Below the pieces are notes generated by a model. That model made no database searches. It had not been told where the DNA came from and was given only the letters and a program-made list of their open reading frames with translations. From positions 23,242-87,241 of the forward strand of contig JAEVEY010000140.1 of assembly GCA_016842045.1 (NCBI GenBank): 64,000 nucleotides of DNA, in the 5' to 3' direction. The stretch is from Candidatus Thermoflexus sinensis. Lineage in GTDB: Bacteria > Chloroflexota > Anaerolineae > Thermoflexales > Thermoflexaceae. Below, piece by piece: positions 25,440 to 39,971 of the stretch (positions within the stretch are counted from its first letter, which is position 1; each line of letters opens with the position of its first letter). The position numbers and the translations under genes are program-made.

Positions 25440-26237
25440 ATGAATTTCCACAAGATCAGGATCTGGGGTGTGATCATCTTGTTGTTCGGGCTGCTCTATA
25501 CGATGCATGCGCAGGGGCAGGTAAAGGCGGATCATGACGGCAACCCGAATATCGCGGATATTGTGCTCACCGTCCCTCAGACCTATGTGCTCTGCCCAAC
25601 CGGGACGGACTCCGATGTAGTGGCTCTGAGCAACGTGGGCACCCGCTGGCTGAGGGGTTATGTCCAGCTGGACTTTGTGATCCCCAATAACGGGGGCCGC
25701 CAGATGGTGCAGCGGTGGGACGTGTTGCAGGGTGGAGATTATCGTCTGGAGGTTACCTATCCGGCCTGGGAGACGTGGCCGGAAGGATTCTTCGAGATGC
25801 ACGTGGATCTGGTTTTCGAGATCTACCCGACGGAGGCGGATGCCCGGGCAGGCACCAATCTGCTTGGGACCATCGGGCCGGGGCATCCCTGGGATATCTT
25901 CTGTCTGGCCGAGCGGCCTATCGCCACTCCTTCCCCCTCACCGACGCCTACATTGACCCCAACCCCCGGGGTGGTTCCGCCGCCTCCTCCCACACCCACG
26001 CCGATCCCCAGCCCGCTGCCCACGGAAGCGCCAACCGCTGTGCCGCCGGTGGCTCCACCCGTTCCATCTCCGGCGGATCCCACCCCACTTCCCACAGAGC
26101 CTTTAAATGGAGAGCTGCTGGGCCGCACCGGTGTGGGGCGCTCTCCTTCACCCATCCCCTGGCTCATCGGGCTGGTTCTCTGGGTCACAGGAGGCATTGC
26201 ACTGGGGTTGCGCGCGCGCCGCCGGAGCCAGCGGTAA
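25440..26237 (+). CDS. Predicted sortase-anchored surface protein
   Basis: Signal peptide, globular domain, Pro/Thr linker, LGRTG, hydrophobic helix, basic tail RARRRSQR. Confidence 0.8.
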   Translation: MNFHKIRIWGVIILLFGLLYTMHAQGQVKADHDGNPNIADIVLTVPQTYVLCPTGTDSDVVALSNVGTRWLRGYVQLDFVIPNNGGRQMVQRWDVLQGGDYRLEVTYPAWETWPEGFFEMHVDLVFEIYPTEADARAGTNLLGTIGPGHPWDIFCLAERPIATPSPSPTPTLTPTPGVVPPPPPTPTPIPSPLPTEAPTAVPPVAPPVPSPADPTPLPTEPLNGELLGRTGVGRSPSPIPWLIGLVLWVTGGIALGLRARRRSQR

Positions 26238-26311
26238 ACGATCGTGGAGCGACGTTTCAAAGCAGGAGGCACTCCCTTCCGCAACACTTTTGAACCTGAG
26301 AGGTCACTCGA

Positions 26312-27025
26312 ATGAAGGCTCCTGCATACTGGATTCTGGGTCTTGGGCTGGTTCTGGGGGGGATCCCCGGGGCCGTATCCTCCGCATGGGAGGGAGAGGA
26401 GATCCCCCTCGCTATGCCGGGGCCCTCGGCGTGGAAGGCCGCTATCCCTTCCGCTTCGATGGAACGGATCCCTCAGGCTGCGGTGGCTATGGAAGATCCG
26501 CTCCAGCGGAAGGCGCTGGAACATCAGGTGGGGGCAAAGGCGCCAGAGGAGCCTGCCCTTGCTCCGGCCGAAGGGCTCCCCGAACGCCTGGTGATTTCAT
26601 CCATCTCCCTGGACGCGCCGATCGTTCCCGCGGGATCCCGGGTGGTTTCGATCCAGGGGCGTCGTTATCGGGAATGGCAGGCCCCGGATCGTTACGCGGC
26701 GGGATGGCATCCCACCTCGGCGCGGGCGGGGATGCCCGGCAACATGGTGCTCAGCGGCCACAACAACATCGCCGGGTCCGTATTCCGCCGCCTGGCCGAT
26801 GTGAAGATCGGAGATCGTGTCTGGATCTACACCCGCGACCGCGTTTTCCTCTACGAGGTGACCGAACGCCATGTTCTTCTGGAGCGAGGTCAGCCCCTGC
26901 TGGTTCGGGAGTCGAACGCCCGCTGGATCGGGGCGTTTCCAGACGAGCGGCTGACGCTAACCACCTGCTGGCCTCCGTGGAGCAATTCCCATCGCCTGAT
27001 TGTGATCGCCCGTCCGGTGCGGTGA
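26312..27025 (+). CDS. Sortase (class D/F-like)
   Basis: N-terminal anchor, GNMVLSGHN, F..L, LTLTTCWP, catalytic Arg in HRLIV. Confidence 0.9.
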   Translation: MKAPAYWILGLGLVLGGIPGAVSSAWEGEEIPLAMPGPSAWKAAIPSASMERIPQAAVAMEDPLQRKALEHQVGAKAPEEPALAPAEGLPERLVISSISLDAPIVPAGSRVVSIQGRRYREWQAPDRYAAGWHPTSARAGMPGNMVLSGHNNIAGSVFRRLADVKIGDRVWIYTRDRVFLYEVTERHVLLERGQPLLVRESNARWIGAFPDERLTLTTCWPPWSNSHRLIVIARPVR

Positions 27026-35599: not shown

Positions 35600-37054
35600 T
35601 TATCGCATGATCAAGGGAAGCATCGCCCGATAGACCTCCGGCACCACCCGGAGCACCACCTGGAGATCCCGCTCCGGGGTTTCCACCAGGACTGACGTGG
35701 AAAGCGGAGAAGGCACTGCCACTCGCACCCGCAAGGTCCCCGTGTAGACGCCAATGCCTCTTCCGGCTGGGTCCGCAGTGAATGATAAGGGTTGGCGATC
35801 GCTTCCTGAGCTGAGATCCGGCGTAAGCGGGAAATCCGGGGAGGAGACGCTCAATACCGACCACGTGAAGGGGTCCGGGGTGTGTCCCTGCAGCCGGAAG
35901 GCTCCCCGCAAGGGCGCAGGGACATCCACGTCCGACAACAACATCAGCGGCGTGTTCCATGCGAACCGCGCCGGAACTTTGTTCTTCGCCATGTCGCGCA
36001 AAGCGGCTTCCGCCGGGCGGCCCTTGATGTCATAGAAGCGCATCTGATCACAGGGGGAGAAGTAATTGGGCGGGGCCTCGCCGAATCCATAATTGAAAAC
36101 CAGCATGGCCCCCATCCATGGCCAGTTCGCGTCGGCCCACTGGTAGGCCTGCACGAGGTAGGTGGCCTGATCCTGAGGGGAGACCACCTGCCACTGCCGT
36201 CCGCTGAAGGAAGGATCGTTCCAGCACTCCGGTCGGCCGACCTGACGGGGATCCACCAGCCATCCGAACTCCGTCGCCCAGATCGGCTTGTTCACGCCGA
36301 ACTCGCTGACCATGATCTGGCGGATCACTTCCACGGTTCGGAAGCAGAAGTCATTGGGCCCGCATTCCGGCGATCCGGGGGCGGCGAGCGCCGGCGCGGC
36401 GAATCCATAGGGGTGGAAGCCCAATGCATCGAAGCAGCTGGCCGCCCCTGCCTGGAGCATCTCCCGCAGGAACTCCCGCTCGTCCTGGTAGTATCCGGGG
36501 CACCATCCCACACCGGGTGCGCAATAGCCTTTGTGACCATTCCAGGTGAAGGGCACACGGCCGGTCGGGGCCAGCCCGGCTGAGACCACGATGGCCGTGG
36601 GGTCCGCCCGCTTGATTCGACGATAGGCCTCGCACAGGACCCGGGTGTAATCCGCGGCGTTGGGGGGCGCGGCCCAGCCGTAGGAGGCGTCCAGGTTCGG
36701 CTCATTGCCGATCTCCCATGCCTCGATCCAGTCCGCCTGGGTTCTGGCCTCGTTCTCCAGCCAGTCCCCCCATGCGCTCAGGTTGTTCAACGTGCCGGCG
36801 TGCACATCCACCCGTCGCAGGACCCGATAGGGGAGCCGGCTTCCTGGGGAGCCGAACACCTTGGTCCAGTCAAAGCCCATCGCTCCAATGCCGGGGTCAG
36901 AGGAGCTCAACGGGTTGACGCCGTAACCCAGATGGGGGTTGGATTGAGCACGGGCATCCGGGGAAACCGAAGAGGAAACAATGGCCATCCCCAGGCCGAT
37001 TCCCACCAGCCACACCCGCAGCAGCTTCCACCAGCTTCTGGATCGGACTTTCAT
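35600..37054 (-). CDS. Exported clan GH-A glycoside hydrolase-like protein with C-terminal LPLIMR motif
   Basis: Signal peptide, acid/base WEIGNEPN, nucleophile IWATEFGW. Start set to ATG 37054 with GGAGG RBS. Confidence 0.8.
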   Translation of the reverse strand: MKVRSRSWWKLLRVWLVGIGLGMAIVSSSVSPDARAQSNPHLGYGVNPLSSSDPGIGAMGFDWTKVFGSPGSRLPYRVLRRVDVHAGTLNNLSAWGDWLENEARTQADWIEAWEIGNEPNLDASYGWAAPPNAADYTRVLCEAYRRIKRADPTAIVVSAGLAPTGRVPFTWNGHKGYCAPGVGWCPGYYQDEREFLREMLQAGAASCFDALGFHPYGFAAPALAAPGSPECGPNDFCFRTVEVIRQIMVSEFGVNKPIWATEFGWLVDPRQVGRPECWNDPSFSGRQWQVVSPQDQATYLVQAYQWADANWPWMGAMLVFNYGFGEAPPNYFSPCDQMRFYDIKGRPAEAALRDMAKNKVPARFAWNTPLMLLSDVDVPAPLRGAFRLQGHTPDPFTWSVLSVSSPDFPLTPDLSSGSDRQPLSFTADPAGRGIGVYTGTLRVRVAVPSPLSTSVLVETPERDLQVVLRVVPEVYRAMLPLIMR

Positions 37055-37342
37055 CGGTAGACCTCCCGGCGTCGTATCAGGGTGGGTAGTAAGAATGATA
37101 CGCTTCGGGCTCCGGCACAAATCCTGCAGTTCGCTTGCCGATCCTGGCTGGGGGAGGGAAGAGCATCTTCTTCCCAAACTTTCGGTGAGCCATATCGGGG
37201 GGCGGAATGGGTGAGGGCCGTCTCGCTGTCTATCTGATCCCCTCCGTGAATCCTCTCCCCACATCGCGAGACGGCCTGGGGAGAGGGAGAAGGTTGGAGT
37301 GGCAGGCCGCCTCCGCCCGAAACCTCCCTGGAAAAGAACGGG

Positions 37343-38191
37343 TTACCGTTGCCACCAGTCCTTGCGGGACCGGGGATCCATGAACACGTTGTTATCCCGC
37401 ACCCCCACATCGATCTGCGCCCCTCGCGCCCGGCCAATGGGCTGCCCGCCGCGGACGGCTGGCAGCCATCCCCGCCCGCCGGCGTTCCACTGCTGGTAGA
37501 GGCCCAGCAGGGAGGGCTCCACGCAGATCCCGGTGATATAGACGGTGTATCCCTGTTGCGTGCTATCTTCGCCGGTGTATTTCAGGGTGATCTGTTGGGT
37601 ATCCGCATACAGGACCAGCGCGTCGAAACCATTGCCGATATTGTAACCGCTGTCGGGGACGTAGATGATCTCACCGGGGTTCACCCGGAAGCCGGCGATC
37701 GTGACCGGGGGCCATCCAGGGGGTGGCGGCAGAGGCCGGTGGTTCTGCCAGTCCCAGCCGTTGTTTTTGTAAACGTTCTGGAAAACCGGGATGCGGTGAT
37801 CGCCGAACAGGAAGCGAAACTGGGGTGCCATGGAATCGAAGTCCCCTCCATACTCCACGAGCCCTTTATACTCGTTGACCGGCACGTAGCCCAGGAGAAG
37901 CAGATTGTAATCCGGGTTGGCGGCGACATCAAAGGAGACCGGGTTGATGACGGGGAAAGTCTCATAGGAGACGCCGGGGATCGGTTCGCAGACGCTCCGG
38001 GAAACCAGCGGGAGATAAACGCGATGAGTGGCCGCGATCTGATAAGAGGCGGTAGGGGTAGGGGACACGGTGTCATAGGCCCGAGGGGCGGAGGTCATTC
38101 CAGCCTCCCCGTAGATCCCGTAGAGGATCCAGACCAGCCCCAGGGCCGCCGCCCATCCACTTCCGCCCAGCCATTTGCCCTGCCGAACCAT
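37343..38191 (-). CDS. Exported/membrane-anchored hypothetical protein with RVYLPLV motif
   Basis: N-terminal hydrophobic helix, Thr/Pro linker, HRVYLPLVSR, then a domain I do not recognise. GGAGG-like RBS. Confidence 0.75.
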   Translation of the reverse strand: MVRQGKWLGGSGWAAALGLVWILYGIYGEAGMTSAPRAYDTVSPTPTASYQIAATHRVYLPLVSRSVCEPIPGVSYETFPVINPVSFDVAANPDYNLLLLGYVPVNEYKGLVEYGGDFDSMAPQFRFLFGDHRIPVFQNVYKNNGWDWQNHRPLPPPPGWPPVTIAGFRVNPGEIIYVPDSGYNIGNGFDALVLYADTQQITLKYTGEDSTQQGYTVYITGICVEPSLLGLYQQWNAGGRGWLPAVRGGQPIGRARGAQIDVGVRDNNVFMDPRSRKDWWQR

Positions 38192-38588
38192 CCGCTCCTC
38201 CTGGTCTTGAGGCTTCCATTAAGGTGGGTGTGGCGATTCCGCCATTCTCGCACAACACGATCCGGATCTGGGCGTTTCCTGCGGGTTTCCTCCCGGAGCT
38301 TGGGGGACCGAGCCGCGCTTTTGGTACGCGGCTCGGCCCTCAAATTGTTTTTCATCCCCCCTCCCCGCGGCCCATTGGGCCATGGGGAGGGGGTGGACAG
38401 GGCCACCGAAGGTGGCCCTGTCCACCCCAAAAAACCTGAATGGATTTTGAGCCCCTTTTCACCTCGAAACCGACATAAGCCCGCATCGTTCCAGGTGGGC
38501 GAGCTTAGCCCCGGCAATCCTGGGCTGAGTCCAGGCCTGAGCGCATCCTTCCGCGCCGCTGTGCCGCGAGGAGAGATCAGAGGGAGCT

Positions 38589-39653
38589 TCAGCGAATTTG
38601 GGTTTCCTGTTCTTCAGCCTCCACGGCTGTCGCGGCCTGGGGGCTGGTTGAGGCCACGAAGAACGTCCAGGTGTAAGTCTGCCCGTTCACCGTGATGGAG
38701 ACCGTATAACGAGAGCCGGGGGAGAGAGGATCCCTGGGGATCATGACGATGGCATCCCGGCTGTTCAGGATCTGGCGCCCTAACCGTTGCTGGTTCCCAT
38801 CGGGGTTTGTGTAATTTGTTTCATCAAACACGCAGCGTTCCACCGGCACGCCGTCCCGCCACAGGCCATGACCCGTCACGGAGGGGGTTAAGGAGCCGGT
38901 CCCCAGAAGCAGCAGGATGGGAAGGCCTGTCGGGGCGGTATAGCCACAGTGGGTCAGGGGATCCGGGTATTCCCCAACCTGGAAGGCGCGCAGGGGGGTA
39001 GTGCTCCCGTCGCCTGGCCAGCGGATGGGGAAAGAGACGCCTGCTGCGCTGGTTCCCAGCCCACGCCATATATCCAGCGCAGCCCCCATCTGAAATCCGC
39101 CGTCCGCCTCCCGATAGGAGCCGTAGCCCACCTGGATCAGGCGGGGATCCAGCATCCCCACGGCGTGGAAAGGCGCCTGCATCCAGACATCGATCGCATA
39201 CGCATCGGAGGCGGTGGCGCTGGAGCTCACCATCACGTTCGCGTTCCGTCCACACTCATCCCCTTCCCGGGTGTACCATTGGTTCTGATGATCCTCGGCG
39301 TGGGTGATCACATCGTTCTTCACCATATACCGGGCGTGCTTCCAGCAGCCATCATTCCACTCAGGTCGTTCGGCTACCGGGGGCAGCCCGGCCATCGCGC
39401 GATAAGCGTTCAGGCGGGCGAGCCATTCCGTGGGGAGGGTGGCGGGGGGACGGAGGATCAGGGGAAGGAACACTCGATAGGTGGTTGCGCTTTCGGCGGC
39501 CTCCACGCGGGTTCCTGGTTCCACAAAGGCAAAGCCCGAGGCGCCCTCAGGGCTCCCATTTCGAAAGAACCATCCCACCAAACTGACCAGCAATACCAGC
39601 TCCCAAATCCCTCTCCGAATCCATCGCCTCCAGATCCCCCATTCCTTATCCAT
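38589..39653 (-). CDS. CAP (SCP/Tpx-1/Ag5) domain exported protein with RVFLPLI motif
   Basis: LARLNAYRAMAGLP, HARYM, WMQAPFHAVGML, VGYG. Start trimmed to ATG 39653 because the longer ORF runs through the tRNA. Confidence 0.82.
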   Translation of the reverse strand: MDKEWGIWRRWIRRGIWELVLLVSLVGWFFRNGSPEGASGFAFVEPGTRVEAAESATTYRVFLPLILRPPATLPTEWLARLNAYRAMAGLPPVAERPEWNDGCWKHARYMVKNDVITHAEDHQNQWYTREGDECGRNANVMVSSSATASDAYAIDVWMQAPFHAVGMLDPRLIQVGYGSYREADGGFQMGAALDIWRGLGTSAAGVSFPIRWPGDGSTTPLRAFQVGEYPDPLTHCGYTAPTGLPILLLLGTGSLTPSVTGHGLWRDGVPVERCVFDETNYTNPDGNQQRLGRQILNSRDAIVMIPRDPLSPGSRYTVSITVNGQTYTWTFFVASTSPQAATAVEAEEQETQIR

Positions 39654-39864
39654 CGTTCTGTGCTCCAGAGTTTGGGTCAGGTTGGTTATAACCATTTTAC
39701 TCGGTTGGATTTGGGTTGTCAAGAGGGGGGATCGATCTGAAATGGGTGAGGAAGGTCTGGAGGGCACCGGAGGCGGCCTTGTCGTCAGCCTCCCATTCAT
39801 CTGGAGCCCAGGAAAAATAGCCCGGGCCCCTGCATCCATTCGGTCTTCCCAGGGCCCGGGCTCC

Positions 39865-39956
39865 TGGCGGAGGGGGTGGGATTCGAACCCACGAGGGGCG
39901 GAAACACCCCTACGCGCTCTCCAGGCGCGCGCCTTCGTCCACTCGGCCACCCCTCC
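39865..39956 (-). tRNA. tRNA-Ser (anticodon GGA), CCA encoded
   Basis: Acceptor GGAGGGG/CCCCTCC-G-CCA, D-loop GAGTGG, anticodon arm GCGCGC-CTGGAGA-GCGCGT, long variable arm, T arm GTGGG-TTCGAAT-CCCAC. Confidence 0.97.
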
Positions 39957-39971
39957 GGACCGCATTTTTAT

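Follow-up and report, generated by a model that had tools for sequence, protein, structure and literature searches.

A catalogued YLP-box peptide on three adjacent exported proteins of Thermoflexus and its possible role as a surface tether

Hot-spring mats, activated sludge and sediments are dominated by filamentous Chloroflexota, which feed via secreted hydrolases and have a layered envelope without an outer membrane. The closest described counterpart of the element studied here is a short peptide of this phylum, the YLP-box, recognized by two NCBIfam models named 'YLP-box putative sorting motif-containing protein': NF050076 (sort_motif_YLP, 11 positions, curated cut-off 15 bits) and NF053834 (ultrashort_CTERM, 10 positions, curated cut-off 10 bits). 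The models exist as a database entry only; a literature search found no paper on 'YLP-box' or YLPLV in Chloroflexota, and neither a tested function nor a partner was found. The adjacent accession, NF050077, describes an unrelated pilus protein, FilA, and was ruled out. Here we analyze a 64,000-nucleotide stretch of Candidatus Thermoflexus sinensis (the window; C148:23242-87241 of a 3.44-Mb assembly in 212 contigs), in which three adjacent genes, for a glycosidase, a hypothetical protein and a CAP protein, each encode one copy of this peptide, referred to below as the box.

All three copies are encoded on the minus strand. The glycosidase ends in YRAMLPLIMR, the final 10 residues before the stop codon (35603-35632; 35600 with the stop), the hypothetical protein contains HRVYLPLVSR (37997-38026) and the CAP protein contains YRVFLPLILR (39450-39479). 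A sequence-only reading of the window had reported these peptides and positions, and translation reproduces all of them exactly. The copy in the hypothetical protein is canonical and passes both models, with 15.1 bits for NF050076 and 12.8 bits for NF053834, and scores 19.5 bits in a six-frame search. The CAP protein scores 11.9 bits with NF050076 in hmmscan, below the cut-off, and 15.6 bits in the six-frame search, above it (G000:C148:62691-62723). The degenerate copy of the glycosidase (AMLPLIMR) lacks the aromatic residue and gives no NF050076 match above threshold; its Thermoflexus orthologues end in EVYRDYLPLIQR, with the canonical YLPLIQR directly before the stop codon. The window motif and the NCBIfam entry share the motif itself, the Chloroflexota lineage and exported multi-domain carriers. 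Curated scores are reached, and the peptide is found on exported carriers with unrelated domains, either terminally or where domains meet. All three motifs are instances of the YLP-box, [FYH]-R-V-[YF]-L-P-[LVI]-[VI]-x-[RK]. The motif is already catalogued as a putative sorting motif, hence it is not a new kind of system, and the description of it as an undescribed envelope-display system has to be given up.

Elsewhere in this genome the box recurs, and about 19 proteins carry it, nearly all of them exported. Across 2,779 crude gene calls, which cover 87% of the genome, the regular expression [FYW][LM]P[LMV][IV].[RK] matches 18 proteins, compared with 2.2 ± 1.6 in shuffled proteomes and 2 for the reversed pattern, an enrichment of about eight-fold over the shuffles. 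Nine of the 18 matches lie four residues or fewer from the C-terminus, where 1.4% would be expected, giving a 35-fold C-terminal excess; five come after a signal or anchor at the N-terminus, and three lie internally. An N-terminal hydrophobic segment is found in 14 of the 18 carriers versus 26% of the remaining proteins (Fisher p = 7e-6). Of the four carriers without a detected segment, three are missed because of the threshold, a mis-chosen start codon or a contig end, and the match at the C-terminus of a histidine kinase is probably due to chance. The domains carried include PLD+LTD, a GSDH-like propeller, LVIVD, DUF11/CARDB, GH39-like and β-helix domains, as well as Amidase_3+fn3, Kelch+DUF11, GHL10, LamG+fn3, CAP and GH-A. 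This genome-wide count, with its bias towards exported carriers, and the spread over N-terminal, C-terminal and internal positions on unrelated domains bear out the portability and position independence that had been proposed from three copies. Synonymous codons differ among the copies, therefore selection acts on the peptide and not on the DNA, and a DNA repeat is ruled out. The choice of Tyr and Leu codons within the box is ordinary once the Leu-Pro context is allowed for. As a short linear peptide, the box is specific to exported proteins in filamentous Chloroflexota.

Alignments of the three protein families show the box kept down to 40–50% identity while the flanking linkers diverge freely, and it is under strong purifying selection. 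The hypothetical-protein family comprises 1,348 homologues and has no Pfam match. In 99 of 120 homologues the box lies 2–10 residues (median 4) before an invariant Cys, and the linker upstream of it is hypervariable: alignment columns 58–63, which hold the box, carry 2.5–4.2 bits, and the upstream linker columns 1.1–2.2 bits. The box Pro is conserved in 98% and the preceding Leu in 86% of 65 homologues, and Cys68 and Cys223 are invariant in the family. The glycosidase tail, E[IV][HY]RxYLPx[IV]x[RK], is kept at identities as low as about 40%, in more than 100 homologues. The basic residue is the very last residue in 30 of the 68 sequences matching the regular expression, and three C-terminal boxes of this genome also end exactly on it. 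In the CAP family (612 homologues), the box lies upstream of the CAP domain in 84 of 112 homologues, separated from it by a linker with a median of 12 residues (interquartile range 9–18, sometimes tens), of which 64% are P, T, S or A. The idea that the box is always set off by a linker thus holds in part, for the CAP family. In the hypothetical protein only three residues separate the end of the box from the invariant Cys that opens the domain, and in the glycosidase the box starts straight after the last β-strand, which ends at residue 471.

Structure prediction places the box outside the folded domains. The hypothetical protein (282 residues, exported, no known fold; 37343-38191, minus strand, from the open reading frame list) is composed of an N-terminal hydrophobic segment, a variable linker, the box and a conserved domain that begins at Cys68 (CxPIPGV). 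AlphaFold2, run with an alignment of 65 sequences, modeled residues 68–282 with a predicted local distance difference test score (pLDDT) of about 97, and residues 1–66, including the box, at 45–58 and without secondary structure. Comparison of the domain with folds in the PDB gave no significant match, the best being the M23 peptidase NMB0315 (E = 0.07). The glycosidase precursor (484 residues, exported; 35600-37054, minus strand, from the same list) has a signal peptide, a TIM barrel (residues ~43–355), an Ig-like β-sandwich (362–471) and the C-terminal tail with the box. Its model, built with 78 sequences, has a mean pLDDT of 93 and shows the barrel and the sandwich, with the box as an unpacked tail along which pLDDT drops from 80 to 50. 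In both predicted models, then, the box is unpacked. Foldseek comparison of the glycosidase returned PslG (5bx9, E = 1.8e-11) as the top match, together with GH158 and GH39 (range 1e-11 to 1e-9); the NEP (N117-E118-P) and TEFGW (T261-E262) motifs are invariant in the 78 homologues, and there is no Pfam match. The GH-A label of the sequence-only reading is well founded on this model, these fold matches and these motifs, and the glycosidase is a predicted, PslG-like member of clan GH-A. The CAP/PR-1 (YkwD-like) protein (354 residues, exported; 38589-39653, minus strand) consists of an N-terminal hydrophobic segment, the box, a Pro-rich linker, the CAP domain and a β-rich C-terminal region; residues 78–187 match Pfam PF00188 (E = 5e-10, 40.7 bits with a cut-off of 21.1). 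The three domains that carry the box are unrelated, as had been claimed: GH-A, a domain of no known fold and CAP.

Two further observations concern the hypothetical-protein family. Three homologues have a LysM (peptidoglycan-binding) module where the signal and the box would be, and these fusions hint that the domain is an undescribed cell-wall-active domain. In a closed Thermoflexus genome (G306:C1:1988056-1989905) the orthologue is found in two pieces about 1.1 kb apart, corresponding to profile positions 43–198 and 192–283; this gene may be interrupted or a pseudogene.

Among 301 genomes sampled across the phylum, 63 have at least one box match over the cut-off, whereas none was found in 14 control genomes of other phyla at the same threshold. 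The motif is typical of Chloroflexota, in line with the remark in the sequence-only reading on similar motifs in secreted proteins of this phylum. Box-rich genomes (up to 22 or more matches) are concentrated in a few families, and most families of the window's own class have no match. All 15 Thermoflexus genomes have 4–15 matches each. The closest homologues of all three window proteins belong to Thermoflexus species, and proteins of the window are 72–100% identical to those of Thermoflexus species or metagenome-assembled genomes. Besides the AMLPLIMR of the glycosidase, copies that escape the NCBIfam thresholds include variants that end in His (IFLPLIMH and IYLPLIVH, up to the stop codon) or lack the basic residue (QFLPFVSTT), seen at loci L104, L107 and L109. 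The hidden Markov model therefore undercounts, and genomes without a box over the cut-off may still use the tag. At one of these loci (L109 39-1283, plus strand, genome G320), a secreted lectin-like protein beside the homologue ends in VPLTVLPAALGLALAAAYTLRRRR, a different anchor made up of a transmembrane segment and an Arg tail; the boxes of this genome are few or degenerate.

Candidate partners were profiled across genomes. The C25 (gingipain/PorU) peptidase family (PF01364) occurs in 16 of 17 box-rich genomes, the exception being the window's own, and in none of 25 box-free genomes of other classes, a sharper contrast than that of the control cargo family DUF11. However, the PF01364 search found no C25 in the window's genome and 11 other Thermoflexus genomes (12 of 15, including the closed G306), all of which have boxes, and two genomes, G320 and G316, have C25 and no box reaching the cut-off. 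Nine of 12 C25 proteins inspected themselves end in a box, for example SRVYLPLIRR. C25/PorU as an obligate enzyme is thus ruled out for Thermoflexus. Because it is absent from most box-bearing Thermoflexus and is itself box-tagged, C25 is cargo, or at most a lineage-specific accessory. The C25 peptidases at loci L099-L107 (from G247, G295, G231, G234, G210, G076, G263, G036 and G148) are about 900–1,200 residues long, with box ends that include SRVYLPLIRR, YRVDVPLLQR and IFLPLIMH. In Chloroflexia, C25 loci adjoin DUF11 proteins, at least one of which is box-ended (YFIPLIGR), and the arrangement looks like a conserved surface module.

All 21 box-positive genomes tested have sortases, but so do 18 of the 23 box-free ones. 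This genome has four, together with about three substrates in which L[PG]RTG is followed by a transmembrane helix and a basic tail. Boxes have 0–4 trailing residues or lie N-terminally or internally, and their presence does not track the enzyme. With this non-discriminating distribution and with substrates of their own, known sortases were rejected as the machinery of the box. One sortase–substrate pair lies in the window. The gene at 25440-26237 (plus strand) encodes an exported protein of 265 residues with a long Pro/Thr linker followed by LGRTG, a transmembrane helix and RARRRSQR, and directly after it the gene at 26300-27022 (plus strand) encodes a class-E-like sortase (TLTTCWPP). Further LPRTG substrates are found on contigs C101 and C193, and three more sortases in the same genome.

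Exosortase (PF09721) was found in none of six Thermoflexus genomes, was absent from 19 of 21 box-positive genomes and occurred in 3 of 28 genomes overall; with the enzyme absent and no transmembrane segment after the box, an exosortase/PEP-CTERM system is rejected for Thermoflexus. No SLH domain was found in the 58 Chloroflexota genomes sampled, and because it is absent from all of them, SLH is uninformative as a complementary anchor. The hypothetical-protein family occurs in 11 of 13 box-positive genomes of its own class versus 1 of 26 box-free ones. It is missing from box-rich genomes of other classes, which rules it out as a universal partner and makes it cargo. No gene recurs beside box genes in this genome or at 80 related loci. 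No receptor came out of these tests. The box does without C25/PorU, exosortase and SLH, none of which comes into question as its machinery in Thermoflexus; a divergent sortase is still conceivable there.

We tentatively favor a role of the box as a non-covalent, orientation-independent tether that retains exoproteins at the multilayered envelope by way of a putative receptor. After Sec export, the hydrophobic peptide, flanked by basic residues, would be exposed and, in extended form, would bind non-covalently to an envelope component. Docking could take place at the peptidoglycan-associated inner layer, at the shared outer layer or at the protein lattice. Hydrolases and adhesins would in this way be kept on the filament, sometimes through a Pro/Thr-rich stalk. 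Electron cryotomography of related filamentous Chloroflexota has resolved, besides the cytoplasmic membrane and peptidoglycan, an inner and a shared outer layer and a protein layer resembling a lattice (PMC13319060; PMC7332563), and these layers are possible docking surfaces. Boxes occupy the N- or C-terminus of the mature protein or a linker between domains, and such a tag would work equally well at all these places, as binding of a peptide requires no directional chemistry. The same use in either orientation argues against directional transpeptidation, since cutting at an N-terminal box would release the domain and not anchor it. When a C-terminal box ends on the basic residue, cleavage behind this residue would have no leaving group, and the C-terminal boxes all lack a membrane-retention segment. 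The layout of the CAP family (signal, box, stalk, domain) mirrors the 'domain, wall-spanning stalk, anchor' arrangement of wall-anchored proteins. The LysM module that replaces signal and box in three homologues would likewise support a role in retention. The reading also draws on the enrichment and export bias of the box in this genome, on its conservation beside diverging flanks, on its unpacked position next to domains with pLDDT above 95, on the outcome of the tests of directional transpeptidases (C25, exosortase and sortases) and on the absence of the canonical SLH anchor.

Several points weigh against such a tether. The searches found no receptor, the binding is something we infer, and box genes have no recurrent neighbor. 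Some N-terminal boxes follow a possibly uncleaved membrane anchor, which may make a second tether redundant. The hydrophobic residues of the box are contiguous, whereas those of classical donor strands alternate. The LysM variants also lack a signal peptide; instead of a like-for-like swap they may be proteins of another kind, for example phage-type ones. Finally, the L-P-x-[VI] core with at least two trailing residues is formally compatible with a sortase-like cut. Of the surface-targeting or docking role first proposed for the motif, what stands is that it best fits the anatomy, namely a disordered terminal peptide, the box–stalk–domain order of the CAP family and use in either orientation; the receptor it calls for was not found. 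Its more specific form, β-strand addition to an S-layer or sheath, is conjecture; cleavage or processing of the box is also conceivable. A further step is possible but less likely than not: that the YLP-box is the ligand of a kind of surface display undescribed in bacteria, with an unstructured peptide of 7–10 residues, usable in either orientation, that docks non-covalently into a dedicated envelope receptor. If this were true, a cell would tether hydrolases, proteases and giant adhesins by the dozen without sortase, exosortase, C25 or SLH.

The strongest competitor, which we consider unlikely, is that the box is the recognition or cleavage site of a putative extracytoplasmic sorting or processing enzyme, such as a divergent sortase, another transpeptidase or a protease. 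A C-terminal box would then lead to covalent attachment to the wall or a polymer, and an N-terminal box to release of the domain from its membrane anchor; a divergent sortase could cut L-P-x-[VI]-x-[RK] after the [VI] position. The curators' name, 'putative sorting motif', points in this direction, as does the resemblance of the core L-P-x-[VI]-x-[RK] to LPxT|G, always with two or more residues after the β-branched position. The distributions of the enzymes can be read both ways. Sortases accompany the box in every box-positive genome, and C25 does so in all box-rich genomes besides the window's own, beyond the DUF11 control. Yet sortases are also common where the box is missing and, in this genome, are matched by L[PG]RTG substrates, one of them adjacent in the window; C25 is missing from most box-bearing Thermoflexus, is present in G320 and G316 without a box over the cut-off and is itself box-ended; and exosortase is absent. 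Moreover, no transmembrane segment or charged tail would hold the substrate, and the opposite topological outcomes for N- and C-terminal boxes are awkward. One published data set could have borne on processing, that of the Litorilinea GhlA surface filament, but its peptide table is uninformative because coverage stops 30 residues before the C-terminus.

Explanations that need neither receptor nor sorting enzyme fare worse. It is quite improbable that the box is a hydrophobic wedge with basic flanks that inserts, receptor-free, into the outer face of the cytoplasmic membrane or into a lipid- or polymer-rich outer layer. Its six or seven contiguous hydrophobic residues between Arg or Lys, its function at any position and the failure to find a partner gene would suit a wedge, but the membrane affinity of seven residues is weak. 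The near-invariant Pro, the preceding Leu and the aromatic residue point to sequence-specific recognition, none of which a generic patch needs, and the patchy distribution among related families suggests a partner gained and lost rather than general physics. Very improbable, too, is that the box is not a localization signal but serves an export or folding factor (a chaperone, a peptidyl-prolyl isomerase or a quality-control protease) as a handle. A hydrophobic core with basic flanks is the classic chaperone-binding pattern and Leu-Pro a preferred isomerase site, and the box is unstructured and found at any position. A box at the extreme C-terminus, however, is translated after the upstream domains and cannot guide their folding or export. 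The conservation is also too specific, and the box is restricted to a lineage whereas general chaperones occur everywhere. That the similarity is coincidental, or that the box is a structural strand of each domain, is refuted by the present results and deserves next to no credence. In its favor stand the shortness of the motif and a glycosidase copy under the curated threshold of the hidden Markov model, but the enrichment over shuffles, the C-terminal excess, the export specificity, the conservation in three families and the lack of packing in two models all speak against it. A small remainder of our confidence, roughly, is left for mechanisms outside these readings.

The YLP-box marks a large share of the Chloroflexota exoproteome, with about 19 proteins in this genome and more than 20 in others. 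Identifying its partner would open the envelope biology of the phylum and could yield a very small display tag. The present analysis adds a quantified conservation in three families and two structure models with the box outside the fold. It also provides, with Thermoflexus, a counter-example to the C25 hypothesis, and the finding that C25 peptidases are themselves tagged. The three window genes should be annotated as YLP-box proteins, and the glycosidase as PslG-like.

The trio of CAP, hypothetical-protein and glycosidase genes keeps its synteny only within Thermoflexus. Downstream of it lies alaS, in convergent orientation, and just upstream of the CAP gene lies a tRNA-Ser(GGA) gene (39865-39956, minus strand). 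A mechanical open reading frame of 458 residues (38589-39965) runs through this tRNA; because the tRNA sits immediately upstream, we place the start of the CAP gene near 39653.

Among described anchoring systems, LPXTG/sortase signals share with the box a short L-P core motif on exported surface proteins and the presence of sortases in every box-positive genome tested. Unlike these signals, the box has no transmembrane helix or basic tail and also occurs N-terminally and internally, whereas the real sortase substrates of this genome have L[PG]RTG, a transmembrane helix and RRR. The type IX secretion system of Bacteroidota, with its C-terminal domain (CTD) and PorU, offers a second parallel: C25 co-occurs with boxes in several classes and is tagged like PorU with its CTD. 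That CTD, however, is a folded domain of about 80 residues, the YLP-box has 10, and most box-bearing Thermoflexus lack C25. The PEP-CTERM/exosortase and PGF-CTERM/archaeosortase systems resemble it as lineage-specific C-terminal tags on many unrelated exported proteins, but their signals contain a transmembrane helix and an Arg-rich tail. SLH, LysM, dockerin–cohesin and donor-strand complementation provide a functional analogy, the retention of exoenzymes, often through a Pro/Thr stalk. Anchors of these types are folded modules of 40–70 residues or strands with alternating hydrophobic residues, whereas the box is an unstructured peptide of 7–10 residues.

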